In this document: piece after piece, positions 21,017-64,000 of the stretch
Layout of the letters: every line of letters starts with the position of its first letter
Position numbering within the stretch: position 1 is the first letter of the stretch
The notes under the pieces: generated by a model
What the model saw: the letters and a program-made list of their open reading frames with translations, nothing else
What the model was told of the DNA's origin: nothing
The model's database searches: none
Assembly: GCA_963752255.1 (NCBI GenBank)
Contig: CAVVXT010000014.1
Coordinates: 32,803-96,802 of the forward strand
Source: Nitrososphaeria archaeon
Lineage (GTDB): Archaea > Thermoproteota > Nitrososphaeria > JACIWG01
DNA length: 64,000 bases
Direction: 5' to 3'
Translations under genes and position numbers: made by a program

Positions 21017-21047
21017 TTAACATTATCTAATTTTATAGAAAATAAAA

Positions 21048-26677: not shown

Positions 26678-28181
<1,504 letters not shown>

Positions 28182-28318: not shown

Positions 28319-31414
<3,096 letters not shown>

Positions 31415-47522: not shown

Positions 47523-47861
47523 ATGAAATTCTGTGATACATGTGGCTCGCGCTTGAAGATTAAACAGTTTAAAGAGGAAGGGAAGACTGTGCTTCGATAT
47601 TATTGCCCTAAATGCAACAAGGTTTACGATCCTACCAATTTTGGCTCCTCTGAAGTTAAAAAAGGGGAGTCCCATCCAATAAAGATATTGAGTGACGCAG
47701 AATCCAAGCTTGAAACCATGCCGACCATTGAAATCGAATGCCCTAAATGTGGGAACAATAAGTCTTACTGGTGGCTTTTACAGACAAGAAGCGGAGACGA
47801 GCCTCCCACTCAGTTCTATAGGTGTACAAAGTGCAGTCATACTTGGAGAATGTACGCCTAA
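47523..47861 (+). CDS. tfs: transcription factor S / RNA polymerase subunit M
   Basis: It has an N-terminal Zn ribbon CDTCGS...CPKC and a C-terminal TFIIS-type ribbon CPKCGNNKSYWWLLQTRSGDEPPTQFYRCTKCSHTWR. Confidence 0.75.
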   Translation: MKFCDTCGSRLKIKQFKEEGKTVLRYYCPKCNKVYDPTNFGSSEVKKGESHPIKILSDAESKLETMPTIEIECPKCGNNKSYWWLLQTRSGDEPPTQFYRCTKCSHTWRMYA

Positions 47862-48904
47862 GCAACACTAGTGCTCTCAATAAGTTGAATAGCATCTTCT
47901 TCTGATAGCTTGACTTTATTCAAGATTGTAAATCGATCTCGCAGTTTAGGTGCCAATAACAGGGCTTCAACTGCCTGTTCTTTGGTGATTCCTAAACTTG
48001 GAAGATATGTTGGCGTGCCTATGTTTTCCAAGGCAGACTTTATTTCCTCCCAGTCCAAATTATGTAACTTTGCCATGAGAATTGTTCCAATCCCACACTT
48101 CTCTCCATGCAAGCCCTTTCCTGGGGCGAGGATGTCTAGCGCGTGACTGAAAAGGTGTTCGGAACCACTACAAGGTCTACTACTGCCCGCTATACCTGCC
48201 GCAACACCAGCACTAATAAGCGCTTCAACAACGTCCCTAGTGCTCGTAACCAAATTAGAACCTATCTTCTTAGAATTCTTTAGAATAACTTCAGCGCTTA
48301 GAAGGGCTAAATTGGCGGCATATTCCCCATAATATTCGTCCGTCTCTTCTTTACTCAATTGCCAGTCCTTGACCGCAGTGACCTTTGCTATCAGATCACC
48401 ACATCCACTTCGAATGTATTTTTGAGGAGCTGAAGAGATTATTTGAATGTCAGCAAGTAATCCCAGAGGTGAGGAAGAAACGATAGAGTAAGGCTTTCCG
48501 CTATCCTTTATCGAAGCAAACGGACTTGCTATACCATCGTGTGCGGCATTTGTCGGCAGACTAATGAAAGGCTTCCTACTTTTATATGAACTCAATTTCG
48601 CGACATCTATACAGGTTCCCCCTCCCATACCAATAACACCGTCTACATTTTCTTTAACTATCTCTTCGATGGTTTCTTTTACATTTGAAAAATCAGCCGT
48701 CTTAATAATATTCCAATAATATTTTATGTCACAAGTTTTTAGGGAGTTCTCAACCCTTCCCCCGTACTGGTTTCTTATGAATTCATCGCTTACAATGAGA
48801 ACCTTCCTTGTGCCACAGAGCTTGGCTATGAATTCTCCAATATTGACTATTATCCTATCTCCAACAAGAATTGCTCTGGGGAACTCCATAAAATGTGAGT
48901 TCAT
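47858..48904 (-). CDS. egsA: glycerol-1-phosphate dehydrogenase [NAD(P)+]
   Basis: It is 348 aa and resembles DHQS/iron-ADH (MGGGTCIDVAK, HDGIASPF), the archaeal G1PDH size and pattern. Confidence 0.6.
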   Translation of the reverse strand: MNSHFMEFPRAILVGDRIIVNIGEFIAKLCGTRKVLIVSDEFIRNQYGGRVENSLKTCDIKYYWNIIKTADFSNVKETIEEIVKENVDGVIGMGGGTCIDVAKLSSYKSRKPFISLPTNAAHDGIASPFASIKDSGKPYSIVSSSPLGLLADIQIISSAPQKYIRSGCGDLIAKVTAVKDWQLSKEETDEYYGEYAANLALLSAEVILKNSKKIGSNLVTSTRDVVEALISAGVAAGIAGSSRPCSGSEHLFSHALDILAPGKGLHGEKCGIGTILMAKLHNLDWEEIKSALENIGTPTYLPSLGITKEQAVEALLLAPKLRDRFTILNKVKLSEEDAIQLIESTSVA

Positions 48905-48991
48905 TAATTATAGGTTTTGGAAACATTTATTTAAACCCTAATTAAATACCTGCGATAAAGCAGAAGCCTCTTAAAGGAGCGATGAATAAAT

Positions 48992-49639
48992 TTGATTACA
49001 AATTCTAATGGCAAAGTCCCTAAGATATATCATGGGACAACAACCGTCGGCTTAGTGTGTGTCGATGGTGTAGTATTCGCTACTGATACTAGGGTTACGG
49101 CAGATGGTTATGTAGCCCACAAGAAAGGGAAGAAACTGTACAAGATCGCAGACAACCTTGCCATGACTATCGCTGGAACGGTTGCTGACGCGCAAAACGT
49201 GATAAACATAATACGTTTCTATGTAAAAAAATATGAGCTTGAACATCAAATGCAGATTCCAATAAAGGCAGCAGCCACTTTGACTTCAAACATTTTTTCT
49301 GCGAATCGTATGTTTCCGCTGATAACTCAAGTAATTATGGGCGGCGTCGACGGTGGTCTACCTTCATTATTTCAGATAGACTTCTTTGGATCTCTAACAG
49401 AAGAGAAGGTTTTCTCAACTGGGAGTGGTTCGCCTATAGCATATTCTATCCTAGAATCGTCATATTCTCCCAGTCTAAGTACAAAAGAAGGGGCGAAGAT
49501 AGCAGCTAAATCGGTTCTCGCTGCCATGAAAAGGGATACTGCTACAGGGGAAAGTCTTGATGTGGGCATAATTGATTCAAATGGTTATCGTGAACTTGAT
49601 TCAGAGGCAAAAAATGAACTGATAAAAGATCTATGGTAG
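48992..49639 (+). CDS. psmB: proteasome beta subunit (copy 2)
   Basis: It has the catalytic-Thr context HGTTTVGLVCVDGVVFATDTR. Confidence 0.8.
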   Translation: MITNSNGKVPKIYHGTTTVGLVCVDGVVFATDTRVTADGYVAHKKGKKLYKIADNLAMTIAGTVADAQNVINIIRFYVKKYELEHQMQIPIKAAATLTSNIFSANRMFPLITQVIMGGVDGGLPSLFQIDFFGSLTEEKVFSTGSGSPIAYSILESSYSPSLSTKEGAKIAAKSVLAAMKRDTATGESLDVGIIDSNGYRELDSEAKNELIKDLW

Positions 49640-51564
49640 ACAGTAACTTGCAACATAAAAACAACTCTGACAAAGCCTCTGGCACAGTCTTTCTGCAGAG
49701 CATTCCTCCCCAAGCAGAGGTCACGAATATAGAATATGAAGGTCCAAGATTTGCCATTTACACAAAGAATCCGAAGTTCTTCGTAGAGAATAACTTCGTA
49801 ATATCTGATATTGTCTCGAATCTTAAAAAGAGAGTTGTTATTAGAGCTGATAAATCAATAAGAAAAACAGAGGAGCAGACAAAAGAAATCATCTCTAAAA
49901 GGCTTCCTTCGGATCTTGTTATAGAACGTTTTATTTTCGATAAGGTACTGGGAGAAGTTTTTGTCGAACTGAAAGATCTGTACAAAATTTATTCTAAGAT
50001 AGCGGAACTTAACCAGAACATCTTTTCTGAGACAGGATGGAGGCCTAAGTTCAGAAAGACTTCTTCGTTGAGATCTGAAGGTTTAGAACAGGTCTATCAT
50101 GTACTACAAACCGACTCGAATGATAGAGAGCGTATACTAAAAGATGTCGGAGAATATATTTTTAGGCAAAAGCTTACTGAGAAAATAGAAGTGCTCGCCT
50201 CATTCCTGGGCGGGTCCCAACAGGTCGGACGTTCATGCGTACAGGTAAGAACTAACGAGAGCAACATTCTGATAGATTGTGGTATAAACCCTGGTGCAAA
50301 TGACCCTTTGGATATGTACCCAAGACTGGACATGTATTCGAAGAATCTAGATGATCTTGATGCTGTAATAATAAGTCACGCTCACCTTGATCATTGTGGT
50401 TTTCTTCCTGCGCTTTTCAAATATGGATATGATGGGCCAGTTTATTGTTCTGAACCAACCCTCAACCTTATGGCTCTGTTATTGACCGACTTCATAAAAA
50501 TTTCTTCTTCTGAAAATGCGATATCTTTATTTGATATGAGAGATTTGAGGGAAACAATTCAGCATTGCATACCCTTACCTTATGGTTCTGTCACTGATAT
50601 TTCTCCTGACACCAAACTGATACTTAACAACGCGGGCCACATATTGGGCTCAGCATCAGTTCACTTACATTTTGGAGAAGGCGTATATAATCTCGTCTAC
50701 ACAGGCGATTTCAAGTTCGAAAAGACCCAGTTACTAGATGCTGCTCAATACGGTTTTCCACGCGTAGAGACCGTTATTATAGAAAGCACTTACGGCTCTA
50801 AAGAGGACATTATGCCCTCTAGACTGGATGTAGAACGGTACTTTGTAAATTCGATAAACAGTTCTCTTTCTAAGGGGGGTAAGGTGTTGATTCCTGTTCC
50901 AGCTGTAGGGCGCGCACAGGAAATCATGTTAGTCTTAGACTCTTATTTGAAGTCAAAGGAAATGATCGAGTGTCCTGTGTTTATTGAAGGTATGATCACT
51001 GATGCGACAGCCATTCATATCGCATTTCCAGACTATCTTGCTTCTGAACTAAGGTCTTCTATTGTTGAGAGAGGAATTAACCCGTTCGAATCTGAGTACT
51101 TTACTGTGATAAATAAACCTGATGAGAGAGAAGAGGCGTTGCAACAAGGTCCGGCAATCATAATGGCTACATCCGGTATGCTTGAAGGAGGTCCGGCAAT
51201 AAGATACTTAGAAGAGATTTCCGGAGATGAACGAAACAAGGTGCTTTTTGTATCCTATCAAATTAATGGCACACTCGGCCGCCGTGTTCTGGATGGAGCT
51301 AAACAGATAAGTATAATTGACGACGATGGTAAAATAAAGATAATGGATTTAAGGTGCGAAATAGACAAGGTTGTAGGATTCAGCGGCCACAGTGACTACA
51401 ATCAGATTATGAAGTTTATTGCGAAACTTAGACCAAAACTCAGGAATGTCGTGGTTAATCATGGTGAGAAGGCAAAGACTCTTAGTATAAGCAATAACAT
51501 AAGTAGACTTTTCCGTTTGCCAGCCACAGCGCCTGCTAGCCTGGAAACGCTTAGGTTTGTCTAA
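49633..51564 (+). CDS. aCPSF1 (FttA)-type KH-domain beta-CASP metallo-beta-lactamase ribonuclease
   Basis: It has two N-terminal KH-like regions, the MBL motif ISHAHLDHCG and beta-CASP motifs, at 643 aa. Confidence 0.8.
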   Translation: MVDSNLQHKNNSDKASGTVFLQSIPPQAEVTNIEYEGPRFAIYTKNPKFFVENNFVISDIVSNLKKRVVIRADKSIRKTEEQTKEIISKRLPSDLVIERFIFDKVLGEVFVELKDLYKIYSKIAELNQNIFSETGWRPKFRKTSSLRSEGLEQVYHVLQTDSNDRERILKDVGEYIFRQKLTEKIEVLASFLGGSQQVGRSCVQVRTNESNILIDCGINPGANDPLDMYPRLDMYSKNLDDLDAVIISHAHLDHCGFLPALFKYGYDGPVYCSEPTLNLMALLLTDFIKISSSENAISLFDMRDLRETIQHCIPLPYGSVTDISPDTKLILNNAGHILGSASVHLHFGEGVYNLVYTGDFKFEKTQLLDAAQYGFPRVETVIIESTYGSKEDIMPSRLDVERYFVNSINSSLSKGGKVLIPVPAVGRAQEIMLVLDSYLKSKEMIECPVFIEGMITDATAIHIAFPDYLASELRSSIVERGINPFESEYFTVINKPDEREEALQQGPAIIMATSGMLEGGPAIRYLEEISGDERNKVLFVSYQINGTLGRRVLDGAKQISIIDDDGKIKIMDLRCEIDKVVGFSGHSDYNQIMKFIAKLRPKLRNVVVNHGEKAKTLSISNNISRLFRLPATAPASLETLRFV

Positions 51565-51848
51565 CCTCTCCATATGCCGACGGTGGGCGGTGTAATTATT
51601 ATCCTGTCTTCTCCGAGTCTAGCAATATCGCCACCATTTGCTGTCGCGATTTCGTAAAGTCTGCTTACGGCCTCCCTGAGTTCTTCAATATTTTTTTGAG
51701 CTAGTGGGGTTATCCTTAGTATGACTATCGTATTGTTTTCTATATCTTCCTTTACTTTTTCGACTTCGGTCGCCGACCTGAGCGCATATGCCTTTAGCAG
51801 CATCCGTACACTTTGACGCTTCTCATTATTGATTAACTCGCTTGCCAA
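51561..51848 (-). CDS. SepF/DUF552-like protein
   Basis: It is 95 aa, and IVILRITPLAQKNIEELREAVSRLYEIATANGGDIARLGEDRIIITPPTV matches the SepF core pattern. Confidence 0.4.
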   Translation of the reverse strand: MASELINNEKRQSVRMLLKAYALRSATEVEKVKEDIENNTIVILRITPLAQKNIEELREAVSRLYEIATANGGDIARLGEDRIIITPPTVGIWRG

Positions 51849-51979
51849 GGTCTAACGCCCTATTGTAGAACTTTTACATCCTTGTTTTTAAACGTTAGCA
51901 TAAGTTAATCATTTTGATAAAAAATTTTAATATAAAAATTGCTATAAAACTCTTATTAGCGTATGTGAAGTCCTAGTCG

Positions 51980-52507
51980 ATGGAAGAACTTTCTAAGAAC
52001 GTTCTGATAGTCTTTTGTGGCCCATCAGGCGCTGGTAAGACTACGGTTGCAAGAATGGTCTCAGAAGACCTGGCGAGGAGCACTCCAACAATTCATGTAC
52101 AAACTGATTTGATAAGGAAGATGTTCGTTAAACCATCGTATAACAGGAGTGAAAGCCACTTTGTGTACTCTCTACTATACGAAATCACAAGAAAGCTCTT
52201 GCCGCAAAACTATAACGTTATATTGGATGGCACTTTCCTTAATAATAGTTATAGGCTAAGGGCCATCCAGATTGCAAGATACTTCAGAAAGCGTTATCTG
52301 ATAGTTGGATTAAAAGCGAATCTGGCTACCTTGATAGAAAGGAACAAGAGTCGCTCATCCGAGGAACATGTGCCTGACAGAACGGTTACCGGCTTCTGGA
52401 TCAGATTTCAATATCCTATGAACGGTATTATGATAGATACCGACCTGCATTCACCTGAAGAATGTGCTGGGATTATTCTTCAAAGGCTTTCCTATTTGCA
52501 AAGGTAG
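51980..52507 (+). CDS. P-loop nucleotide/nucleoside kinase family protein
   Basis: It has Walker A FCGPSGAGKTT at the N-terminus and is 175 aa. Confidence 0.4.
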   Translation: MEELSKNVLIVFCGPSGAGKTTVARMVSEDLARSTPTIHVQTDLIRKMFVKPSYNRSESHFVYSLLYEITRKLLPQNYNVILDGTFLNNSYRLRAIQIARYFRKRYLIVGLKANLATLIERNKSRSSEEHVPDRTVTGFWIRFQYPMNGIMIDTDLHSPEECAGIILQRLSYLQR

Positions 52508-52508
52508 C

Positions 52509-53000
52509 TCAGGACAGTTTTATATCCTTCATGATGTCCCAATATTTGTCTCCAACATAGTGAAGGTTGTCTAGTACTACTCCCTTTACTGTCTTTTCAG
52601 CCTCACTTTTTTCCACAAGTGCTCGTGCTATAGAGATATACTTACCATGAATCGCATCCTTTACGCATACGACATCGCCTTCAGAAAATTCTCCTTCAAA
52701 GGCGACTATTCCAGGTCTCATGATTTTCGCACCTTTACATATATAAGGTATTGCGCCTTTATCCACTTTTATGTAAGGAAGTTTTCCAAGAAAACCTTCT
52801 TCGCAAACAAGCGAGGGGAAGATCTCTTCCTTTTCTTTTATCAGGACAATTTTGTCAAGTAATAAAACCTGCGCGTCTTTTTCTATTTCTATTACCCTAT
52901 TACCTTTTTCCTTTACATCTGGGAGGTCAACCTTCAGCTGTTTTTTGATTTCTTCTAGCACGTTTTTTGTATCCGTCTTGGAAAGGTAGAATTCGCGCAC
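52509..53000 (-). CDS. PUA-domain RNA-binding protein (Nip7-like)
   Basis: It is 163 aa with a C-terminal PUA-like segment (KIMRPGIVAFEGEFSEGDVVCVKD). Confidence 0.4.
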   Translation of the reverse strand: MREFYLSKTDTKNVLEEIKKQLKVDLPDVKEKGNRVIEIEKDAQVLLLDKIVLIKEKEEIFPSLVCEEGFLGKLPYIKVDKGAIPYICKGAKIMRPGIVAFEGEFSEGDVVCVKDAIHGKYISIARALVEKSEAEKTVKGVVLDNLHYVGDKYWDIMKDIKLS

Positions 53001-53094
53001 ACCATTTTTCTCCTACATATTATTTCTTAAACTTTATCAAAAAGGTAAGGTAAATAAAGAGGTGTTTTAGAGTTGGTATCAGTAGGCGACTCAT

Positions 53095-53322
53095 TTGTCA
53101 CTCGATTTAGCTGTAAAGATGTTGGAAACAAGCTTAGGTAAGATTGTACTCGTTAAGCTAAAGGGTGGACGTGCGATCCGAGGCATTTTGAAAGGTTATG
53201 ATCAGCATATGAACTTTTTGCTTGAACAGTCAGAGGAAATCATGGACGATGGTAAAGCCTCCTCGCTTGGTACTATTGTTGTACGCGGTGACAACGTTAT
53301 ACTCATATCACCTTCTCCATAG
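53095..53322 (+). CDS. Sm-like archaeal protein (LSm)
   Basis: It has the Sm1/Sm2 pattern ([26 protein letters not shown] ... [12 protein letters not shown]). Confidence 0.7.
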
Positions 53323-53331
53323 GTGACATAA

Positions 53332-53478
53332 ATGAAAGGTACTACTTCTAGTGGGCCAAAGGGAAAGAGGCCAAGAACTCATATGATATGTCGAAGATGC
53401 GGTAAGCCTTCTTTTCATGTGAGTAAGAAAAGATGCTCATTCTGTGGTTTTGGTGCGACAAAGAAGCTTAGGAAGTAG
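53332..53478 (+). CDS. rpl37e: ribosomal protein L37e (48 aa); absent from the ORF track
   Basis: The translation is MKGTTSSGPKGKRPRTHMICRRCGKPSFHVSKKRCSFCGFGATKKLRK. It has a C4 zinc ribbon, and LSm-L37e adjacency is conserved in archaea. Confidence 0.7.
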   Translation: MKGTTSSGPKGKRPRTHMICRRCGKPSFHVSKKRCSFCGFGATKKLRK

Positions 53479-53544
53479 TTCTCTTGCACCAATATGTTTA
53501 ATACCAATATGTTTAATTATAGGCTGAGAAAGGATTATTAAAAG

Positions 53545-54195
53545 ATGTCCCTCAACGATATCCTGATTGGCGTTGCCTTCGGCCTTTCTTCAGGTGCTAT
53601 CTTAGGTTTTTTTGTCTCAAAGTATTTGATTAAGCCTCCGACTAAGGTTACTCCTCCAAAACAGCTTGAAGTTAAGCCGTCAACCATTCCTCCTGAAGAA
53701 GCGAAGAATGCAAGACAGGAATTGAAGACCTTGCTTTTAGAGAAGGACTTGTTAGGCAATGCCATAACCCGGGTTTTTGAGTTAGAAGCCCAAGGACAGG
53801 TTTCTAAGGAAGAACGCGATATTCTTGTTAAAAGATACAAGGATCGACTCCAAGAAGTTGACGGCAAACTAGACGATATCGAGCTCATAATCGAAGTAGG
53901 TGAGCTGGAACATCTTAGAAATGAATTAGTCACTTTGATCACAAGAAAGCTAGACGATGTTGACAAGAAACTTGAAAAAGCATTGGTCCGCTTGGACGCT
54001 CTGAAAATCAGAAGTCCTCCTCCAGTTGCACAAAGTAAGGGTCAGCAAGCGAAGGAAGCTGCGGTTCCAAAGGTTGAGAAGAGACCACAACGAATACTCG
54101 AATCATCAGTTGACAAAGAACTCAAGCAGTACAGGGAAGAAATAATGGAGGCACTTGATAAGCTAGAGCAAATAGATTTAGAAGAGGGACAGTAG
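53545..54195 (+). CDS. membrane-anchored coiled-coil protein
   Basis: It has an N-terminal TM helix, a Pro-rich linker, and then long heptad-like charged helices. Confidence 0.3.
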   Translation: MSLNDILIGVAFGLSSGAILGFFVSKYLIKPPTKVTPPKQLEVKPSTIPPEEAKNARQELKTLLLEKDLLGNAITRVFELEAQGQVSKEERDILVKRYKDRLQEVDGKLDDIELIIEVGELEHLRNELVTLITRKLDDVDKKLEKALVRLDALKIRSPPPVAQSKGQQAKEAAVPKVEKRPQRILESSVDKELKQYREEIMEALDKLEQIDLEEGQ

Positions 54196-54196
54196 C

Positions 54197-54868
54197 TTGG
54201 ATTCCCCAATTAAAAAGATTGCCGAGGACCTGGTTGATAAGATAAACAAGATTAGATACATAGGTATGGGAAGTGGCCGTACTATGTCCGATTTTGTCGA
54301 TGCCCTAGCCAGCTTTAAGATAAAAAATGAACAAAAATTTGTCCCTACTTCTTACCAGATCGCTCTTAAACTAAGGGAAAAGAATTTCGAAGTCGAAATG
54401 TTCCCTCACATTAAAAAAATTGAATTATACATCGATGGTGTGGACCAGATCGAAGAGAAGAGTCATTTTGCAATAAAAGGCGGTGGTGGAGCACTTCAAA
54501 AGGAGAAGATATTGATGAATAACTCTGAGGAGACAGTTTTTATCCTTCAGGAAAAAAAGGTAGCAGAGAGATTGGGAACGGGATGTCCGGTTCCAGTTGA
54601 AGTGTCGCCTTTCGCTTCATCTTTCGTAACAAATTATATGAAGGAATTAGGTGCAAGTTCAGAACTGAGGAAAGATCAGAGAGGCTTTCCCATATTCACT
54701 GAAGGTGGTAACATGATTATAGATGTCTCCTTTAATGGGATATCTGATGTCATCGATTTGGAACATAAGATAAAAGCCCAACCAGGAGTAATTGAAGTTG
54801 GTCTCTTCACTAAAAAGCCATCCTATATCTACATACTAAAGGAATCATCCTTTGAAAAAAGAAGCTGA
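54197..54868 (+). CDS. rpiA: ribose-5-phosphate isomerase A
   Basis: It has IGMGSGRT, IDGVDQIEE and IKGGGGALQKEKI. Confidence 0.7.
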   Translation: MDSPIKKIAEDLVDKINKIRYIGMGSGRTMSDFVDALASFKIKNEQKFVPTSYQIALKLREKNFEVEMFPHIKKIELYIDGVDQIEEKSHFAIKGGGGALQKEKILMNNSEETVFILQEKKVAERLGTGCPVPVEVSPFASSFVTNYMKELGASSELRKDQRGFPIFTEGGNMIIDVSFNGISDVIDLEHKIKAQPGVIEVGLFTKKPSYIYILKESSFEKRS

Positions 54869-54989
54869 CAATACGACTTTCTATCTGTTGTAACGTATCG
54901 AGTCAGATTTTATCTTAAGACGAGTCTACATCAGCTGAGTCAACTTCACATTGAACGTTTGAAAGAGGATATGGGAAGGATTTCAACGA

Positions 54990-56174
54990 TTAGAGTTTTT
55001 TAGAGAACTCTTGACCTAATTCAAAGCACCTTTTAATCTCTTCTTTGTTAGGCGCCCAATTAACTTTCAGTGGTGGAGCAACAACTTCTATTCCTGCCTT
55101 TCCGAGTCTTTCTTCTATTATCTTAGTCGCCTGTCCTCCCCATCCATAGGATCCAAAGGTTGCTGCGACCTTCTTGAGGGGCCTGAGCCCTTCCACTTCT
55201 TCAAGGAATGGGGCCAACGTTGGTAATATACCGTTATTGATCGTCGATGATCCAATAATTATTCCCTTTGATTCGAGAAGCTCCATGAGGATGTCGCTTC
55301 TGTCAGAATATGGAAGCCGGAATAGAGAGGTTACCACGCCTTCATGCTCTAAACCTTCGACTATGGCTTTAGCCATCTTCTCCGTGCTACCCCACATTGT
55401 ATCATATACAACAATTACCTTCTTGTTCGATTCTCCGTTCGCCCATCTAAGATATGCCTCAATTATCTTCATTGGGTTGCTGCGCCAGATAATGCCGTGG
55501 CTTGGAGCTATCATCTTAATCTTTAACCCTATCCTTTGTACTTCTTCGATCTTTCTCTTTACCAGTTGGCTAAGGGGCCATAGTATGTTAGCGTAATATT
55601 TGGCAGCTTCTTCCATCAGTATTCTTTCGTCAACTTCGTCATCAAAACGTTTTGAAGTCGCTAGATGTTGGCCAAAGGCATCATTCGGAAGCAATAATTC
55701 GTCCTTCTCAATATATGTGAACATGCTATCTGGCCAGTGAAGCATTGGGGCTTCAAGAAACGTTAGTGTCCGTTTTCCAAGGTTTAACTGATCGCCCGTC
55801 TTTACAACTTGGAAGTTCCAGTTGCCAAAATAGTGTTTTTCTAAGCCCGCCTTACATTTCGCTGTTCCTATAACCTTGGCATTTGGAGCTAACTTTAGCA
55901 CTTCGCCTATGGCTCCGGAGTGGTCCGTTTCAACATGGTTTGCTATAATGTAGTCTATCTTGGAAGGTTCAATGACATCCTTTATCCTTTCTATCATTTC
56001 CTCCGAGAATGGCCCATAAACGCTATCGACTAATACAACCTTTTCATCGACTATTAAGTAGGCGTTGTAGGTAGTTCCCCTATGGGTTGAATAAGTAAAA
56101 CCATGGAAGTTTCTAACGTTCCAGTCTACAACACCAACCCAGAAGATGTTCTCTAAAATTTCTATTGCTGACAT
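54990..56174 (-). CDS. flavodiiron protein (FprA family: metallo-beta-lactamase-like domain plus flavodoxin domain)
   Basis: It has the di-iron ligand motif HVETDHSGA and a C-terminal flavodoxin-like domain, at 394 aa. Confidence 0.75.
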   Translation of the reverse strand: MSAIEILENIFWVGVVDWNVRNFHGFTYSTHRGTTYNAYLIVDEKVVLVDSVYGPFSEEMIERIKDVIEPSKIDYIIANHVETDHSGAIGEVLKLAPNAKVIGTAKCKAGLEKHYFGNWNFQVVKTGDQLNLGKRTLTFLEAPMLHWPDSMFTYIEKDELLLPNDAFGQHLATSKRFDDEVDERILMEEAAKYYANILWPLSQLVKRKIEEVQRIGLKIKMIAPSHGIIWRSNPMKIIEAYLRWANGESNKKVIVVYDTMWGSTEKMAKAIVEGLEHEGVVTSLFRLPYSDRSDILMELLESKGIIIGSSTINNGILPTLAPFLEEVEGLRPLKKVAATFGSYGWGGQATKIIEERLGKAGIEVVAPPLKVNWAPNKEEIKRCFELGQEFSKKL

Positions 56175-56841
56175 ATTCAGGTCATTTTACTCCGCTTGGA
56201 CTTAAACTAACGGTAAAATTTATCTTTTTATGAAGCAAGATGTGAATCAGTTTAGATAAATGTTTCTCGGTTTATGCTAAGTTAAAAAATTGATAAAAGA
56301 CCATTTAAAGGAAATCTCCATCGTTTATCGGATGATATCATTGTCCAGTCTATCTGTTTCTGTTCGAATCTAATACTTGAACGTAGGATTTATACTGAAT
56401 GGGTTCAAATCTTTTTTTGAGAAAAATTTTTTTACTATGTAAATTGAAGCCGTCTATGAAATTTATCTCATTCCCATTGTTAAGATAATCAACTTATCCT
56501 AATATCGCTGTAATTATAAGTTACTCGGCAAATTTTTTCCTTTCTCAGCTTTTAAATTCGAGCCATATTAATTTTCTGAGTATTATGCATTTTTTTGAAA
56601 TACTTTGATAAATAAACAAAATAATAATATATTCAAAAAGACTTATGTAGAATTAATTTCTAAAAGAATTTATAAAACTTGTAAAGTTTGTTTTAAAAAT
56701 GTTATCATGTTTCTGAGTGTTTATGACATAGTAAAAGAGAAAATGGGAAAAGTAACAGGAGACATATTTTTGAGGAAAAGACGGAAACCTCACAAATAGA
56801 TAATGCATATGTATGAAATAATCTATAAACAATTGCGGCTG

Positions 56842-58035
56842 TCAACTGCTCTCTTTAAGGACGTTAACTATATTCTCGACAAGTATGTCGGCTTTCTTTT
56901 TATCTTCTTCAGATATTTTACCTTTCACCAGCAGTTGTGGTTCTAAAACCTTCATGCCTATTTCTAAAAGCCTGCTTTTTAGAGTATCGGTAATATTACT
57001 ACCCCAGCTATAGTTGGTGAAAATCGCAAAGGTCTTAGGTCGAACATGCTTTATCGTCATGTATTCAATAATATTCGATACAAGCGGGAATATTTGACCT
57101 TCATAGGTTGGTGATCCTATCATAACCACCTTCGAATCTAATATATCTGTTAAAATATAGCTTGGATGAACTATACCCAAATCATGTAAGATAACATCTA
57201 TCCCTTTTTCTCTCAGTTTTGATCTAAAGTACTCTGCACATTCTTTTGTATGTTCATACATACTCCCATAAATAATCAGAACTTTGTTTTCATCTTTACC
57301 TGAACTCCATTGAAGATATTTAGATATAGGATAGTTCGGATTATTCCTGTAAATAGGGCCATGTGTTGTGCAGAGAATTTTTATCGGAAGATCTTGAATC
57401 TTTTCACCTGCTTTGATGATGAACAGTGAATAATGGGAAAATATATCTGCAAAATATCTCTTCATTTCAATCTCATAAGATGAAACATTTTTTTGATCGT
57501 CAAATAAATTTCCGTTCATTGTGCTAAAGGTTCCAAAGGCATCGCCTGAAAATAAAACTTGATCCTCTACATCATAAGTAAAGATTGTTTCAGGCCAATG
57601 AAGCCAGGGTGCAGTAATAATTTTTAATGTGCGGTCACCAAGTGATATTATTTCACCATCTTTGACCACTAGACTATTGAAGTCTTTATGGTAGTATGCC
57701 TTTGCTATATTAATCGCCATCTGTGATCCAATAACTTTTGCTTTAGGTGCGTACTTTAGAATTTCCCCAAGAGATCCGCTGTGATCTGGTTCCAAGTGAT
57801 TTAGAACTATATAGTCGATCTTTGAAGGTTCAACGACTTCCTTAACATTTTCTAAGAACTCTTTTGAATAGAACTTGTCCACAGTATCTATCAGCACAGT
57901 CTTCTCTGAACCTTTGATAATGTACGAATTGTAAGTTATACCCTGAGGTATAGGCCACAATCCTTCAAATAAGATGTTTCTATAATCATTAATTCCTACC
58001 CAGAATAAATTATCAAGGATTTTAACCGAAACCAA
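56842..58035 (-). CDS. flavodiiron protein, second paralog
   Basis: It has NHLEPDHSGS and the same architecture, at 397 aa. Confidence 0.75.
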   Translation of the reverse strand: MVSVKILDNLFWVGINDYRNILFEGLWPIPQGITYNSYIIKGSEKTVLIDTVDKFYSKEFLENVKEVVEPSKIDYIVLNHLEPDHSGSLGEILKYAPKAKVIGSQMAINIAKAYYHKDFNSLVVKDGEIISLGDRTLKIITAPWLHWPETIFTYDVEDQVLFSGDAFGTFSTMNGNLFDDQKNVSSYEIEMKRYFADIFSHYSLFIIKAGEKIQDLPIKILCTTHGPIYRNNPNYPISKYLQWSSGKDENKVLIIYGSMYEHTKECAEYFRSKLREKGIDVILHDLGIVHPSYILTDILDSKVVMIGSPTYEGQIFPLVSNIIEYMTIKHVRPKTFAIFTNYSWGSNITDTLKSRLLEIGMKVLEPQLLVKGKISEEDKKKADILVENIVNVLKESS

Positions 58036-58147
58036 TTAGAATTCGCCCATATCAATTTCTATATTTGATGATATAAAATTTTTTTATTTTCTCTCAGGTC
58101 CAGGGGCTGTTATCATGATCATCTTAGCAACTTTAATCTAAAATGAA

Positions 58148-58222
58148 GTGGACCGGGTGGGACTCGAACCCACGACCTCTCCCATGCCAAGGGAGCATAA
58201 CTACCAACCTGTACTACCGGCC
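58148..58222 (-). tRNA. tRNA-Ala (GGC)
   Basis: The minus-strand fold has acceptor gggccgg/ccggtcc with a G3:U70 pair, anticodon stem ctccc/gggag with loop uuGGCau, and T-arm gtgggttcgagtcccac. Confidence 0.75.
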
Positions 58223-58397
58223 CATAGCGCTTTATAACTCATAGGCGGTCTAAAATACTTAATAGATTTTACTATTTTTAATCATTTACCACGCCAAATT
58301 TAAACATGAATGAATCTAAAATATTATTCAGTCTATTAACCCTTTCATATGATAGAGTGCCAAACGGAGCCAGAAAGTTGAAGACAATCATCGGGAG

Positions 58398-58742
58398 ATG
58401 TATCGTCAATTAGACGATTTGATTGCTAACTATGATTCAATAAGATCAAAAACCATAGACTTTGAGAAACGTTCTGAGTTCGGTCTACAGCTCTACAGGG
58501 CATTGAACCGATTTATTTCATTCTATCTTACGCGCATCAATGAAGAAGAGAAGGATGTGCAGCCTACGTTTTGGAGGTTCTGCATGAACAAGGATTTGGC
58601 AGACGCTTTGCATACAATTATAACAAGTCAAAAGCCTGAAGAGCTCAAGTATAACTTTGCGATGATGGTTCCAGTCATGAATTTGAATGATCAGATTGTT
58701 AATAGATCTATTGCCTTTGCAACTTTAATTAATAGAGCTTAA
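58398..58742 (+). CDS. hypothetical protein
   Basis: The 114-aa ORF lies between tRNA genes and has no recognised motif. Confidence 0.25.
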   Translation: MYRQLDDLIANYDSIRSKTIDFEKRSEFGLQLYRALNRFISFYLTRINEEEKDVQPTFWRFCMNKDLADALHTIITSQKPEELKYNFAMMVPVMNLNDQIVNRSIAFATLINRA

Positions 58743-58864
58743 CTATTTCAATACTCACGTGACAGAATAACAGATGTAAAAAATTTTGCAGAAAAATATT
58801 TAAAGTGAGTCATAGGCCAACAATGTTGTCTAAAGCGAGGAAAAATAAGAAACTGAAGACAAAT

Positions 58865-58939
58865 GCGACCGTAGTCTAGTCTGGTCTAGGACGGGAGCCT
58901 GCCACGCTTCTGACCCGGGTTCAAATCCCGGCGGTCGCA
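58865..58939 (+). tRNA. tRNA-Gly (GCC)
   Basis: The sequence gcgaccgtagtctagtctggtctaggacgggagcctGCCacgcttctgacccgggttcaaatcccggcggtcgca folds as a cloverleaf. Confidence 0.8.
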
Positions 58940-59061
58940 TCCTAAACAATAGGCAAAAATTAGTATCCTCAACCCATAGTAAAAATTCTAAGAAACTTCA
59001 CGTTTGCGGCTTAATCGACGATTTAAAATTATATATACCATCCTTAAGTGGCAATAACATA

Positions 59062-59676
59062 ATGCCTTACGGATTCAACTTTGATCTAAACAGCATTCCA
59101 AAGGCTTTCTTCAAGGAATTGGTGCTCGTCGCTTACAGGGGCAATGTTCATGCAAAGCTTGGCACACGGGCTAAAACGCTGGTCAAAAAATTCAAGATAA
59201 ACGAACTTACCGGCGTAGATTTCGGAGATGCGATAACACTTGTTGAAGACCTTATAACGGTTTACGCCAAGAACTTTGAATATCAGCCTTCATTCCAGTC
59301 CACCAACAGGAGGGCCGTCTTTTTGCCCCATTGTTCAAGGAAGTACATGGATGGAAGATGTAAGGCTTCCTTTGATCCAGCAATACCAGCCTACATGTGT
59401 AACTCCTGTTCGGAGGACTGCCTTGTAAATCAGGCTACAAAGATTGCGAGAAGTAAAATGTACGATGTATTCGTTGTTCCGGGTGGATCATGCATACCAA
59501 AAATACTGAAGGAAAGAGGGTATGACGGTATGATAGGAGTGGCGTGCAGCCAAGAACTGAAAATGTCCACATCCCCCTTAGATGCGTTGAAGGTTTCTGG
59601 GCAGGGGATACCTTTAACGAAGAACGGCTGTGCAAACACCAAATTTGAGCTTGACACATTAAGGGCAGTACTATAA
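59062..59676 (+). CDS. Cys-rich conserved protein, DUF116-like
   Basis: It has LPHCSRKYMDGRCKA...YMCNSCSEDC and is 204 aa, which matches the DUF116 pattern from memory. Confidence 0.35.
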   Translation: MPYGFNFDLNSIPKAFFKELVLVAYRGNVHAKLGTRAKTLVKKFKINELTGVDFGDAITLVEDLITVYAKNFEYQPSFQSTNRRAVFLPHCSRKYMDGRCKASFDPAIPAYMCNSCSEDCLVNQATKIARSKMYDVFVVPGGSCIPKILKERGYDGMIGVACSQELKMSTSPLDALKVSGQGIPLTKNGCANTKFELDTLRAVL

Positions 59677-59779
59677 AGGAATTTAAAATCAGCGGTCATG
59701 TTTTAGTTCTACTTCTAAGAGCCATTCAAGGCCATAAAAGTTATAATATCTTGTTAAGGAACATGACTTGGCTAGAGCT

Positions 59780-59853
59780 GCCGAGGTAGCTCAGCCTGGG
59801 AGAGCACTCGGCTGAAGACCGAGCCGTCGCCGGTTCAAACCCGGCCCTCGGCA
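59780..59853 (+). tRNA. tRNA-Phe (GAA)
   Basis: The sequence gccgaggtagctcagcctgggagagcactcggctGAAgaccgagccgtcgccggttcaaacccggccctcggca folds as a cloverleaf. Confidence 0.8.
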
Positions 59854-60226
59854 CTTATTTTTGGGCTCAATTAACTTTCCTAAAAGCCATTAAGTGCATA
59901 GTAATATTATAAACATAAGTTTATGCTCTTAGGTTCACAGCCTTCCGGTGGTTTTGCATCGAACTTTGAGCGTGCTATGAGTGATTCTCGTGAGTTCTAA
60001 ATCAAATAGAGAATACCTTTTCTCTTGCAGATTCCGTAGTTTATTTCGTTCAGGAAAAAAATTGGAAGTAATCATGTTCGTGTTCCTCTTATTTTATCGT
60101 AGATTCTAGAAAAGTTAATTTAAAGTACCTATCCATTGCTAGAGTGGCTTAAAGGCATACGGTAGTTTGACGGGCAAACCGACCTACAAGGGATGAAGAT
60201 AACATTGCCGTATGCCGAGAAAACGT

Positions 60227-60301
60227 GGGCCGATAGTACAGTTCGGTAGCTACGCTCGCCTCGCACGCGAGAGATCGCGGGTTCAAATCCCGCTCGGTCC
60301 A
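60227..60301 (+). tRNA. tRNA-Ala (CGC)
   Basis: It has acceptor gggccga/tcggtcc with G3:U70, anticodon stem ctcgc/gcgag with loop cuCGCac, and T-arm gcgggttcaaatcccgc. Confidence 0.7.
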
Positions 60302-60392
60302 CTTCGTTTTAGATTAAGGTTTAGGAATAGAAGGAAGACAATAAAATCATTTAACTAGGTGGGATTCTTATTTTAGTGATGGAAGAGGAAAG

Positions 60393-61652
60393 ATGCCGAA
60401 GGACTCTCTTGAAACTAAGAAGAAAATATTGAAGGAAGTGATCAAGCAGCTACAAGGCGGGGCATCGCCGCAGGAAGTCAAAGAAAAGTTCAAACAGGCT
60501 TTGGACGGCGTGAACCCTGAGGATATAGCAAAGATCGAACAGGAGCTTGTCAAAGAGGGAATTCCGAGGGAACAGCTCCCAAGCCTTTGTGATGTTCATA
60601 TGGCCGTTTTTGCCGAACAGCTGGAAAAAAATAAACTTCAAGTCCCTCCAGGCCATCCGATTAGCATCCTGATGGAAGAACACAAAATTTTGTTGGAACG
60701 GCTAAAAAGGTTGGAAGGCTTGGTGGGCGAAACCGAGCAGGCATGTGAAAGATGTGACATGGTCAATGTTGGTGAAGCGTTAAAGGAGCTGCAGGACATA
60801 GCAAAGGATTTTCGGGACTCAGACAAACACTTTTTGAGAGAGGAAAACGTGCTTTTCCCTCTGCTGGAAAAGCATGGGATCACGGAGCCGCCTGCAATAA
60901 TGTGGATGGAACACGTGAAAATAAGAGAGAAGGAGAAACAGTTCTTCAATTTTCTCGAAAAATGGAGCACACTCTACTACAAATATACGGTGGAGACCAT
61001 GGACTTCCAGTACTTCAAAAAGCAAATAGGCGAAGTAGCCACCCCCCTCTGCGAAATCGTCCCAAGCCACTTTTTCAAAGAGAATAATGTGCTCTTTCCA
61101 ACGGCGGTAAAAATGGTTACAGAGAAAGAATGGGAAGAAGCTAGAAGGGAGTTTGATGACATCGGTTACTGCTGTTTCACTCCGCAGCAGTTAATAGGAA
61201 AGCCCTACATTGAAGGAGGTAAAGTTACACCCGCGCTCGAGGGCATTCTGCGATTTGAAAACGGTAGCCTATCAGAGAAGGAGATAGGAGCCATCTTGGA
61301 CTCTCTTCCAATAGACCTCACATTCATTGATAAAAACGACACGGTAAGATACTTCAACAAGGCAGAGAAGAGGATCTTCCTGCGAACTAAGGCCGTTATC
61401 GGGAGAAAAGTACAGTTATGCCATCCTCAGAAAAGTGTTCACATAGTGAACCGGATCCTAGAATCTTTTAAGACTGGCAAGAAGGACGTGGCTGAATTTT
61501 GGATACAAATGAACAATCGACTAGTTCATATCAGGTACTTCACTATAAGGGAAAAGAATGGGAAATACTTGGGGACCTTAGAAGTGACGCAGGATTTGAC
61601 GGACATTAAAAAGATAGAGGGACAAAAAAAGCTTCTGGACTGGGAAGACTAG
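60393..61652 (+). CDS. DUF438 / hemerythrin-like / PAS-like protein (COG2461-type)
   Basis: It has an N-terminal DUF438-like segment (KKKILKEVIKQLQGGASPQEVKEKFKQALDGVNPEDIAKIEQELVKEGIP...LCDVHMAVF) followed by a His/Glu-rich helical domain and a C-terminal PAS-like region. Confidence 0.45.
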   Translation: MPKDSLETKKKILKEVIKQLQGGASPQEVKEKFKQALDGVNPEDIAKIEQELVKEGIPREQLPSLCDVHMAVFAEQLEKNKLQVPPGHPISILMEEHKILLERLKRLEGLVGETEQACERCDMVNVGEALKELQDIAKDFRDSDKHFLREENVLFPLLEKHGITEPPAIMWMEHVKIREKEKQFFNFLEKWSTLYYKYTVETMDFQYFKKQIGEVATPLCEIVPSHFFKENNVLFPTAVKMVTEKEWEEARREFDDIGYCCFTPQQLIGKPYIEGGKVTPALEGILRFENGSLSEKEIGAILDSLPIDLTFIDKNDTVRYFNKAEKRIFLRTKAVIGRKVQLCHPQKSVHIVNRILESFKTGKKDVAEFWIQMNNRLVHIRYFTIREKNGKYLGTLEVTQDLTDIKKIEGQKKLLDWED

Positions 61653-61669
61653 TTGGAGTTTTAAAATCG

Positions 61670-61894
61670 TTAAGTTTCGGTGACGGTTATCACGCTAACT
61701 GGACAGGCGCCCTCTGCACCTCGAGCGTCCGTTATTTTATCGTCGTCAAAATTGCCTGTGGACTTTCCATTGCTTGTTCCCCCGACTACCTTTGACTTTC
61801 CATCGGCATCACCTTCATAGTGGGTGGGGTCAATCGTATAGCATGTCGCGCAGGCTATACATCCCTCCCTATCAATTTCAATCCTATACTTCAA
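61670..61894 (-). CDS. small [Fe-S] ferredoxin
   Basis: It has CIACATC plus a distal CP, i.e. the single-cluster ferredoxin layout, at 74 aa. Confidence 0.45.
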   Translation of the reverse strand: MKYRIEIDREGCIACATCYTIDPTHYEGDADGKSKVVGGTSNGKSTGNFDDDKITDARGAEGACPVSVITVTET

Positions 61895-62127
61895 CTACAT
61901 CATTTTTTCCTCTTTAGTTTAATATTTAAATGTTACAAAAAAGATTTAGGTGGAACATCAGTTTGGTCTCAGGTTCCATCAGTGTACTTGATAATAAAAA
62001 GTGCAGATAAATATATTCTGATATTAAAAGATTAAACCTGCATTTTTCCCTCTGATGTAAAGGCCTGCTTGACCTTTTTAATCAATAATATTTATTTGTG
62101 TATGTTCTGGGTGGTTTATGACGAAGA

Positions 62128-63345
62128 TTGAAGGCCAGTAATAAGCAGAAGACTAGGTCGCCAAACAGAACGTTGGCAATTGTAACGGTGTCACATATGA
62201 TGCAGCATATTTTCTTGGGAACGTCCGTCTTATACCCACTAATAATTACTGAACTGAAACTTAATTACGCCCAATTCGGGCTTGTTGTAGCCTTGGCTTC
62301 ATTTGTCGGCGGCCTTTTTCAGCTGGTTCCAAGTATTATCAGTAGAAGGGTAGCTAGACATGTCATTCTTGGAGTTGGAAACATTATCTTGTCTGTTGGA
62401 ACCTTCCTAACAGGGATCTCGCATGGTATTTTGGATTTCCTAGGTGCTAGGACGTTATCGAATATTGGAACCGCACCGACACATCCCATGGGAACGGCTA
62501 TTATTTCTGGCAAGTTTGAAGACGAAAAAATTGGTTGGGCGATAGGCATTCACTACGGGCTAGCTTACATCGGTAACATCATAGGACCACTACTTATGAC
62601 CTTTCTGGCTGTTGCATTTAACTGGAGGGTCTCATTATATGTCTTCGCTGTCCCCTCCTTGGTTGTAGGCATAACAATGATCTGGTACCTGGGTGAAGGC
62701 AAAAAGATGATGTACGGCAGGGAAAGTAACACTACTTCCTTAAAGTCCGATGTTGTCGGGATTTTGAAAACGAGAGGGGTCTTATCGCTACTCTTAGCGC
62801 AGGTTCTTCTCGCAGGAGCGATAGACATAAACCTCCTAACAACTTACACCCCAATATTTCTCACTAGCGTTCTAAAATTAAATACCGTTGGAAGTGGCAT
62901 CTTTTATACGATTGAACTTTCAGGAGGAATATTTGGGCCCCTTGCCCTCGGAAGGATTGGAGCTAAGCGTGGATACATTAAGACCGCTATATTTTCTACG
63001 ACCGCTGGTGTCATAAGTGTTGTACTTCTCTCCTTTTACTCCTCAGCTAATTTGTTTTTAGCAGTCCATCTCTTCTTACTGGGCTTCTTCTGTTTCGCCT
63101 TCACCACCCTTGCCCAATCTCATCTGATTCGGATAACAGCAAAATCTTCAAGAGATTTGGCTGTAGGCATCTATTTTACCGGCCTCTTTTCAGCTTATTC
63201 CTTATGGGTGGCCGTCGTGGGCTACATAATTAATATCTATTCTTTTCTGCCTGCCTTTATTCTTATGGGAGCTCTTGGTGCAACAGGAATAATCATTTTA
63301 GTCACTCAGGTCAAAGACACAGGTCCTAAGTTGAATGTGAAATAA
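62128..63345 (+). CDS. major facilitator superfamily transporter
   Basis: It has about 12 predicted TM helices with an MFS-like loop between TM2 and TM3. Confidence 0.6.
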   Translation: MKASNKQKTRSPNRTLAIVTVSHMMQHIFLGTSVLYPLIITELKLNYAQFGLVVALASFVGGLFQLVPSIISRRVARHVILGVGNIILSVGTFLTGISHGILDFLGARTLSNIGTAPTHPMGTAIISGKFEDEKIGWAIGIHYGLAYIGNIIGPLLMTFLAVAFNWRVSLYVFAVPSLVVGITMIWYLGEGKKMMYGRESNTTSLKSDVVGILKTRGVLSLLLAQVLLAGAIDINLLTTYTPIFLTSVLKLNTVGSGIFYTIELSGGIFGPLALGRIGAKRGYIKTAIFSTTAGVISVVLLSFYSSANLFLAVHLFLLGFFCFAFTTLAQSHLIRITAKSSRDLAVGIYFTGLFSAYSLWVAVVGYIINIYSFLPAFILMGALGATGIIILVTQVKDTGPKLNVK

Positions 63346-63785
63346 TGCTTTCAATATATTTTCTAGCTATGAACTTGTAATGCTTTGAAAAATATTATGT
63401 AGGACTCGAAATTTTAAGAGTTAGGGACACAAAAAATTGAGTTCGCCCTCAAAGCTTTTCTGACCTAAACATCCGTTCGCTGTGCTCGCCTATTTTCTTA
63501 ATTTTTTTTCATACTCGTCGAATTGTAATGGCTTGAGCCCACTTATGACTTACAGTAATCTTCCTAAGATGTTTGGCAGTAAAAGCATGGCCTTTTTCCT
63601 TGACACCCCAGCTGTAGAGTATTTTGAAACATTCATTCCAACTTCTGCACGTTGATTTACGGACAATTGCCAGTTTACCATAGTGTGTTGACAGGATAGG
63701 GGAGAACATAATTCAGCCGGTAAAACCCAAAACTAGATAAAGCAGATTAGACTACTTTACTCTTGTAAAAAAAAGAGGTGTGATT

Positions 63786-64000
63786 ATGAACCAGGAAGAA
63801 ATAAAAATTAGTGGACCCAAAAGGGAAGAAATTGTTACACTCGGCGGAGGCTGCTTCTGGTGCATGGAGGCAGTTTTCAACGAAATAAAGGGCGTGGTAA
63901 AGGTGGAATCAGGTTATTCTGGTGGAAATCTGGAGTCCCCATCTTACGAGCAGGTATCGTCTGGTACTACGGGGCACGCAGAAGTTGTACAGATTACGTT
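63786..64000 (+). CDS. msrA: peptide methionine sulfoxide reductase MsrA; 3' end lies outside the window
   Basis: It has [17 protein letters not shown] and TGHAEVVQI. Confidence 0.7.

Follow-up and report, generated by a model that had tools for sequence, protein, structure and literature searches.

Class A flavodiiron proteins (FDPs), such as FprA of Moorella thermoacetica and the F420H2 oxidase of methanogens, combine a metallo-beta-lactamase-like domain with a flavodoxin domain, and the canonical ligands of the flavodiiron site follow the pattern H-x-E-x-D-H, H, D, H. Proteins of the YtfE/RIC family, which act in nitric oxide (NO) and oxidative stress, hold a di-iron centre in a four-helix bundle, its ligands in YtfE being H84, H129, E133, H160, H204 and E208 (PMC9268430). 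A hemerythrin-like bundle followed by a PAS_10 domain with an LCHP motif is seen in two uncharacterised structural-genomics proteins, namely PF0695 of Pyrococcus furiosus (3CAX) and the C-terminal domain of SMU_1151c (2QKP). Inversions between inverted copies of repeated genes, such as rRNA genes, tRNA genes and insertion sequences, have also been described. Here we analyse positions 54990-64000 of a 64-kb window (the whole stretch of DNA studied, from contig CAVVXT010000014.1), in which two FDPs and a protein with DUF438, hemerythrin and PAS_10 domains lie around a cluster of four tRNA genes. An initial annotation had taken this region for a single O2/NO stress module, possibly acquired or rearranged at tRNA loci. 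We conclude that it is probably native, recombination-prone chromosome around the tRNA cluster, with independent O2/NO-defence genes in a lineage-specific order, and not an imported island. Its genes belong to known families, of which they are ordinary members, and the region does not represent a new kind of system.

The host of the window is archaeal, with an archaeal 16S-23S rRNA operon at 26678-31414 (Rfam). The source lineage appears to be Bathyarchaeia from peat bog or peat soil, and the closest named homologues of the region's proteins belong to Bathyarchaeia, Bathyarchaeota or "Nitrososphaeria archaeon" metagenome-assembled genomes (MAGs). All the genes and the four tRNAs listed in the initial annotation were recovered in place by ARAGORN, Rfam and Pfam. 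Those that carry the argument are the following:

54990-56174, minus strand: FDP1, class A flavodiiron protein of the FprA type, 394 aa (Pfam ODP/Lactamase_B and Flavodoxin_1)
56842-58035, minus strand: coding sequence of FDP2, class A flavodiiron protein, 397 aa (Pfam ODP/Lactamase_B and Flavodoxin_1)
58129-58224, minus strand: left arm of inverted repeat I1, tRNA-Ala(GGC) with its 19-nt trailer (repeat search, ARAGORN, Rfam)
58148-58223, minus strand: tRNA-Ala(GGC) (ARAGORN and Rfam)
58864-58942, plus strand: tRNA-Gly(GCC) (ARAGORN and Rfam)
59780-59854, plus strand: tRNA-Phe(GAA) (ARAGORN and Rfam)
60226-60321, plus strand: right arm of inverted repeat I1, tRNA-Ala(CGC) with its 19-nt trailer (repeat search, ARAGORN, Rfam)
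60227-60302, plus strand: tRNA-Ala(CGC) (ARAGORN and Rfam)
60393-61652, plus strand: DUF438-hemerythrin-PAS_10 protein of the PF0695/3CAX family (Pfam)

The four tRNA genes fall within 2.2 kb. Across 1.42 Mb of related archaeal loci we counted 24 tRNAs and at most one per 2.2-kb stretch, and against this background the Poisson probability of four or more is about 8e-8, a figure to be read with the provisos that these loci were chosen around particular genes and that ARAGORN overlooks some intron-bearing archaeal tRNAs. The high tRNA density remarked upon in the initial annotation is thus borne out. All four are complete genes with different anticodons, not fragments of the attachment-site (att) type, and Rfam at a permissive threshold detected no RNA element other than these in 56.1-60.4 kb. 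The two tRNA-Ala genes, each with its 19-nt trailer, make up the inverted repeat I1, whose 96-nt arms are 81% complementary and stand 2001 nt apart, and the 2-kb segment so enclosed holds a hemerythrin-like gene remnant, tRNA-Gly, a gene for a DUF116 protein and tRNA-Phe. A metagenome contig of 1.2 kb (L106, of the lineage Ga0315279), with about 80% nucleotide identity to the window, shows the order DUF116 and tRNA-Gly on the minus strand, then the Ala(GGC) leader and tRNA on the plus strand, a trailer of the Ala(CGC) type and the DUF438 gene, again on the plus strand. The segment between the tRNA-Ala genes has the opposite orientation in this relative, and the order is what an inversion by crossover within the 3' portions of the two tRNAs would be expected to produce. 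As in the inversions already known, similar gene copies (here 81%) flank an oppositely oriented segment. The locus differs from them in that the segment is tiny (2 kb) and that two different isoacceptor tRNAs serve as repeats, and the alternative orientation is documented by one short contig only.

In a scan of a genome collection with the DUF116 protein, which returned 66 loci, the gene order of the region was found only in a peat MAG, SPRUCE 295 (locus L005), and in a matching metagenome contig (L078), with proteins 89-98% identical to those of the window. In the next relative (L006, DUF116 75% identical), DUF116 stands amid genes for a thermosome, a nucleoside hydrolase, LigD_N, SSB and an aminotransferase, and the FDP1-type gene of that MAG sits on a separate contig. 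No FDP, DUF438 gene or tRNA cluster was present at the DUF116 loci of 45-75% identity. Since the order is shared only with L005 and L078, and the other DUF116 loci differ, it is lineage-specific; conservation across distant relatives, which the initial annotation had named as evidence against its own reading, was looked for, and the order proved to be confined to one near-identical lineage. Upstream, 47735-56633 aligns with L005 as one unbroken block of 8.9 kb at 96.5% nucleotide identity. Within the 9 kb of the region there are four indels or replacements relative to L005, and none in the 8.9 kb upstream. These, with the elements they affect or adjoin, are:

56634-58134, 1501 nt: variable segment carrying FDP2; 291 unrelated nt instead in the relative (blastn against L005)
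58330-58694, 365 nt: hemerythrin-like remnant; 264 nt in the relative
61719-62037, 319 nt: most of the ferredoxin gene; absent from the relative
63454-63664, 211 nt: intergenic, upstream of the MsrA gene; 67 nt in the relative
56850-58083, minus strand, 1.23 kb: FDP2 cassette, promoter-like TATA stretch plus FDP2 coding sequence (match to locus L071)
56175-56633: AT-rich intergenic DNA on the upstream side of FDP1 (92.6% identical to L005; no Rfam match)
58312-58742, plus strand: hemerythrin-like gene remnant, 5'-truncated and frameshifted (phmmer, tblastn, PF01814 in homologues)
61670-61894, minus strand: small single-cluster ferredoxin (Pfam Fer4_15 and Fer4_13)

The right edge of the variable FDP2 segment lies 13 nt from the 3' end of tRNA-Ala(GGC). 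The cassette within it, 56850-58083, matches positions 9953-11186 of L071, which is contig 1 of the SPRUCE MAG that also holds L005, with 95% nucleotide identity and no gap, and the match spans the gene from a TATA-like stretch, which precedes the start codon by 48 nt, through the stop codon. In L071 the FDP2 orthologue is flanked by an S26 peptidase gene and hypothetical genes, and FDP2-clade genes at 85% and 65% identity adjoin a URO-D gene instead. Neither the flanks of the cassette (56634-56849 and 58084-58134) nor the unique pieces of the other indels have a second copy in the window or in the 125 fetched loci, except for L077, a 6.4-kb Logan contig that is a 100%-identical copy of the window arrangement. 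FDP2 forms a promoter-plus-gene unit of 1.23 kb, which lies beside the 3' end of tRNA-Ala(GGC) here and elsewhere in the closest relative. FDP2 starts 112 nt downstream of tRNA-Ala(GGC) and the DUF438 gene 90 nt downstream of tRNA-Ala(CGC), the two genes being mirror images across the tRNA-Ala inverted repeat. Both the tRNA-Ala inversion and the abutment of the FDP2 cassette on the 3' end of tRNA-Ala(GGC) bear out the part of the initial annotation that spoke of rearrangement at tRNA loci.

At this site the SPRUCE lineage lacks the ferredoxin, FDP2 and the greater part of the hemerythrin-like remnant. L005 retains about the last 16 ferredoxin codons, and a CTGCA microhomology bounds the missing 319 nt on both sides; on account of these residual codons and of the CTGCA at the junction, we regard the gap as a deletion in the SPRUCE lineage and not as an insertion here. 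The remnant corresponds to the supposed orphan open reading frame (ORF) of the initial annotation (58398-58742, plus strand, 114 aa), which is no orphan: in a full-library phmmer search it matched residues ~85-184 of proteins of ~225 aa that carry the hemerythrin domain PF01814. With tblastn, residues 58-78 and 74-183 were found in different frames, and the homology ended near the leader of tRNA-Ala(GGC). As the upstream homology is in another frame and then stops, the gene is 5'-truncated and frameshifted, a pseudogene remnant. L005 retains just its last ~37 codons, and an intact hemerythrin-like gene was probably ancestral at this site and decayed differently in each lineage. The region thus offers a clean small-scale case of tRNA paralogues driving micro-rearrangement in an uncultured archaeal lineage, in which two isoacceptor tRNA-Ala genes flank an inversion, a cassette of one gene has been relocated and deletions have occurred.

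We also noted that nucleotide identity to L005 drops along the region, from 97-98% in the coding sequences at 47.8-54.9 kb to 95% in FDP1, 93.7% in the block at 58.7-61.7 kb and 91.8% in the block with the major facilitator superfamily (MFS) transporter gene at 62.0-63.5 kb, a fall that may be due to relaxed constraint or to recombination with alleles that had diverged.

FDP1 and FDP2 have the metallo-beta-lactamase-like plus flavodoxin layout of class A FDPs, with the flavodoxin domain at the C-terminus (Flavodoxin_1 E-values 1.1e-20 and 1.7e-10, respectively) and without further domains. The full canonical motif set is present in both, at positions 80-85, 146, 165 and 225/226, and reads H80xE82xD84H85, H146, D165 and H226 in FDP1. 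At these di-iron sites the two proteins are predicted to reduce O2 to water and/or NO to N2O with electrons passed via flavin mononucleotide (FMN), and the small ferredoxin may supply electrons. FDP1 and FDP2, whose mutual identity is only 37%, are old paralogues of different clades and not the products of a tandem duplication. The FDP1 clade is highly conserved, with 73-80% identity to many Bathyarchaeia proteins, and FDP1 occupies the matching position in L005 (98% identical); FDP2 is 92% identical to the homologue P0122. The initial annotation was right in describing two paralogous FDPs separated by AT-rich DNA. This spacer (56175-56841, 667 nt, 27% GC) is composite, and consists of the DNA upstream of FDP1 (56175-56633) and a part of the variable FDP2 segment (56634-56841). 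We considered the spacer as a functional element and rejected this, its conserved 459 nt (92.6%) matching ordinary intergenic conservation.

Unlike typical class A FDPs, the FDP2 clade (P0121-P0142) has a variant FMN loop of the form YGSMY(E/G)HT, with YGSMYEHT in FDP2 itself and not YDTMWGST; in the FDP1 clade and in the operonic FDPs described below the loop reads Y(D/V)TMW(G/N)ST. Flavin binding or partner specificity may differ between the two clades. In a further locus (L125, 7438-12475), an FDP1-type gene (77% identical) lies inside a compact oxidative-stress cluster together with genes for a flavodoxin, a Pyr_redox_2 oxidoreductase, VIT1, a ferritin/rubrerythrin and an Fe/Mn superoxide dismutase, which suggests candidate electron donors for the FDP1 clade. 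In another (L124, from the same MAG as L006), an IS605 OrfB/TnpB-like gene at 4779-5861 lies 2.4 kb from an FDP1-type gene, and this was the sole mobile-element gene seen near homologues of the region's genes.

The assignments made in the initial annotation for the DUF438-hemerythrin-PAS protein hold up in profile searches. Pfam detects, in this order, DUF438 (E 8.7e-24, 83.7 bits against a gathering cut-off of 25), Hemerythrin (E 1.4e-17, 64.8 against 25.3) and PAS_10 (E 1.7e-29, 103 against 22.1), and the same architecture occurs in more than 4600 homologues among the matches listed. Sequence searches of the PDB matched 3CAX (E 2.4e-62) and 2QKP (E 1.7e-21), which share with it the hemerythrin-like bundle, the PAS_10 domain that follows and the LCHP motif. 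3CAX differs in that it is without the N-terminal DUF438 and that a pairwise alignment places no His of it opposite H97 or H226. When built from 31 homologues of the protein, a profile matches YtfE with an E-value of 3.5e-5, and aligns H97, H146, E150, H174, H226 and E230 with the YtfE ligands H84, H129, E133, H160, H204 and E208 (structures 7BHC and 5FNN). These six putative di-iron ligands are invariant in sets of 31 and 120 homologues, and the alignment of the hemerythrin His and Glu ligands that the initial annotation had suggested thus finds all six YtfE ligands matched. We infer that the protein carries a YtfE-type di-iron centre in a four-helix-bundle domain shared with YtfE/RIC.

The protein differs from YtfE/RIC in having DUF438 in place of ScdA_N and an extra C-terminal PAS_10 domain, and the similarity between them is weak. 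Membership in the RIC/YtfE family was considered and rejected on the ground that the N-terminus is DUF438, with neither ScdA_N nor a DfCCgG motif; in residues 1-86 Pfam at E <= 10 reported only DUF438, and no ScdA_N or other related family. The protein would therefore be RIC-like in its metal site and not a member of the RIC family. In the AlphaFold2 model (mean predicted local distance difference test score, pLDDT, 73.5) the DUF438 domain has four predicted helices (pLDDT 63-75), with a conserved LCDVH motif in helix 4, and Foldseek, run on the complete model, found nothing beyond hemerythrin-PAS and generic PAS matches. The PAS_10 domain has an invariant Cys-His-Pro motif (LCHP, with C343 and H344), and its fold weakly resembles generic PAS domains, heme-binding ones included (Foldseek). 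The O2/NO sensor function proposed in the initial annotation is possible, but Pfam recognises no DNA-binding or signalling output domain in the protein, and its di-iron domain comes closest to that of YtfE, a repair protein. YtfE and RIC are NO/oxidative-stress proteins, which fits a partnership with FDPs. The protein probably acts together with FDPs in defence against O2/NO, be it in the repair of iron centres, in the handling of iron or as a regulator that binds a ligand. A full-text literature search yielded no paper linking DUF438 with hemerythrin, and queries for PF0694/PF0695 gave nothing useful.

We surveyed the metagenomic neighbourhoods of homologues of the DUF438-hemerythrin-PAS protein (54-66% identical), which comprised 25 other loci with enough upstream sequence. 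In 14 of the 25, the gene is immediately preceded by an FDP gene in the same orientation, mostly with gaps of -44 to +11 nt, and because these gaps are so small we regard the pair as an operon in other lineages. The functional link between FDP and hemerythrin-PAS protein that the initial annotation assumed thereby gains the backing of a tight two-gene operon, and the pairing of these two is the only association that recurs in evolution. Among FDP1, FDP2 and the FDPs linked to DUF438, mutual identity is just 33-42%. It is possible, if on balance doubtful, that the DUF438-hemerythrin-PAS_10 protein is a dedicated and hitherto undescribed FDP partner in Bathyarchaeia, which would repair or load the FDP di-iron site or gate the FDP by O2 or NO, and whose operon would here have been pulled apart and rebuilt around the invertible tRNA-Ala-flanked segment. 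If so, the tight FDP-DUF438 operon would be a functional unit, and FDP2 and the DUF438 gene would each have ended up just downstream of one tRNA-Ala copy. The YtfE-type ligands give the PF0695/DUF438 family, which the recurrent operon links with FDPs, a testable hypothesis, that of di-iron chemistry in O2/NO defence. The region also bears on how strictly anaerobic peat Bathyarchaeia cope with oxygen.

In the same survey, a protein of ~143 aa that is Cys-rich at its C-terminus and weakly matches a helix-turn-helix is often encoded divergently upstream of the FDP-DUF438 operon of other Bathyarchaeia (15 loci; for example L001, 8316-8747, minus strand), and an LMWPc/ArsC-like gene often lies downstream (12 loci; for example L086, 9228-9638, plus strand). 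At DUF438 loci without an FDP, a P-type ATPase is often found upstream instead (for example L091, 5210-7525, plus strand). Homologues of the helix-turn-helix and LMWPc proteins were not found in the window.

The probable reading is one in which the dense cluster of four ordinary tRNA genes would act as a recombination-prone spot, around which several independent O2/NO-defence genes would have accumulated or been shuffled. That the region is instead an acquired genomic island, an integrative element with O2/NO stress genes inserted at the tRNA genes, seems highly improbable to us. tRNA genes are classical integration sites, the edge of the variable FDP2 segment is 13 nt from the 3' end of tRNA-Ala(GGC), close relatives differ in gene content, and the DUF438 gene has a high G+C content at third codon positions (GC3) and the MFS gene an atypical codon usage. 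Nevertheless, in 54990-64000 Pfam finds no integrase, transposase or recombinase family among the scanned listed genes, and every ORF of at least 50 aa is a listed gene or overlaps a listed gene or a tRNA. A repeat search yields no att-like or partial-tRNA direct repeats, only T-arm similarity and the inverted tRNA-Ala pair, and the flanks of the variable segment are unique sequence next to tRNAs that are complete and differ in anticodon, not att-type fragments. The nearest named homologues of FDP1, FDP2 and the DUF438 protein are from Bathyarchaeia or 'Nitrososphaeria archaeon', on either side of the block the sequence runs collinear with that of the SPRUCE relative, and a presence/absence polymorphism of the whole block is not seen, as the block is collinear in L005 and L078 and single genes differ. 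With no integrase, no att repeat, no clear compositional signature and such homologues, the suggestion that the region was acquired is not supported.

A co-regulated stress regulon or 'supra-operon' with the hemerythrin-PAS protein as sensor is likewise unlikely, if less so than an island. It would account for the presence of at least five redox-defence functions in 9 kb (two FDPs, hemerythrin-PAS protein, ferredoxin and MsrA) besides the hemerythrin-like remnant, for the operonic FDP and DUF438 genes of other lineages, and for the weak likeness of the PAS fold to the PAS domains of heme O2 sensors. Against it, both strands carry genes of the group, with tRNAs and DUF116 in between, and conservation of the cluster goes no further than one near-identical lineage, that of the SPRUCE genome, which has already lost the ferredoxin and is without FDP2 at this site; Pfam detects neither a DNA-binding nor a signalling output domain in the DUF438 protein, and elsewhere the operon has a separate helix-turn-helix protein divergently upstream, which is absent from the window. 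The upstream regions of FDP1, FDP2, DUF438, ferredoxin and MsrA share no motif beyond shuffled controls. A candidate operator was rejected, the best 10-mer being found in 4 of 5 upstream regions, equalled in 2 of 30 shuffles and partly made up of tRNA-Ala trailers. Since the genes are separate transcription units, any co-regulation would be hypothetical; these observations, together with DUF116 and the MFS transporter as bystanders, tell against the single stress module of the initial annotation. A mere chance neighbourhood, in which anaerobes carry many O2-defence genes and a few happen to lie near a tRNA cluster, we hold to be very unlikely: it agrees with the differing contexts of the components in other genomes and with DUF116 and the MFS transporter being unrelated to redox defence, but not with the FDP-DUF438 adjacency that recurs in 14 of 25 independent loci, with a tRNA cluster far denser than background, or with rearrangement breakpoints that coincide with tRNA genes.

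Several points weigh against the reading of native, locally rearranged chromosome. The inversion may have gone in either direction, since the site is found in no outgroup and L106 extends over just 1.2 kb; the FDP2 move, too, may have gone either way, and the window genome might keep another FDP2 copy at an L071-type locus. GC3 in the region ranges from 0.32 to 0.54 against a window mean of 0.337 (sd 0.083), and when GC3 and codon usage are compared with the window (the initial annotation had advised a comparison with the rest of the genome), only two genes stand out from a background that is itself heterogeneous: no gene of the window exceeds the DUF438 gene in GC3 (z = 2.4), and codon usage is most atypical in the MFS gene (z = -2.7), so that single genes could have been transferred long ago. 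Both FDPs of the window share no more than 33-42% identity with the operonic FDPs, and the DUF438 gene is not operonic with an FDP in the window lineage, the functional link being borrowed from other lineages. The biochemical functions given for the region's genes are, moreover, predictions from sequence.

The remaining genes of the region are:

59062-59676, plus strand: DUF116 Cys-rich protein (PF01976, E 1.8e-27)
62128-63345, plus strand: MFS transporter (MFS_1)
63786-64000, plus strand: 5' part of MsrA, cut by the window end (PMSR PF01625, E 1.4e-23 on 71 residues)

The DUF116 assignment made earlier is thus sustained by a profile match. Elsewhere the gene lies beside housekeeping genes, in more than 60 other loci. 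It recurrently follows a gene for a TFB-like protein and one for a Zn-ribbon protein, with L7Ae-like neighbours too, and in Hadarchaeota it comes after genes of the Nop56 and fibrillarin type. We named these neighbours by reading their sequences, with no profile search, and the thermosome and SSB neighbours by Pfam. A PDB sequence search with DUF116 gave only insignificant matches to TFIIE zinc ribbons. Its membership in a redox module was considered and rejected on the strength of these housekeeping neighbourhoods, and DUF116 is probably a bystander, a gene of housekeeping context. The MFS transporter, present in L005 at 89% identity, looks like a bystander as well, without a detected link to the redox genes, and neither MFS nor MsrA was found alongside DUF438 at the other loci examined. 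MsrA has the active-site motif GCFWC and is expected to repair oxidised methionine; in the locus comparisons the label MsrA denotes nucleotide similarity only.

Beyond the region, the 64-kb window carries 11 tRNAs in all besides the rRNA operon, where about one tRNA would be expected from related loci. The spacer between 16S and 23S genes (28181-28320) is only ~139 nt long and without a tRNA. A 99-nt tRNA at 2250-2348 (minus strand), beside a tRNA-Leu, is called by Rfam and not by ARAGORN, and is probably an intron-bearing archaeal tRNA. Finally, GC3 is 0.15-0.30 in 1-20700 of the window as against 0.31-0.54 in 21000-64000, and the break coincides with a tRNA-Thr/tRNA-Pro/tRNA-Thr group at 19467-21121; the first ~20 kb looks more compositionally foreign than 54990-64000.

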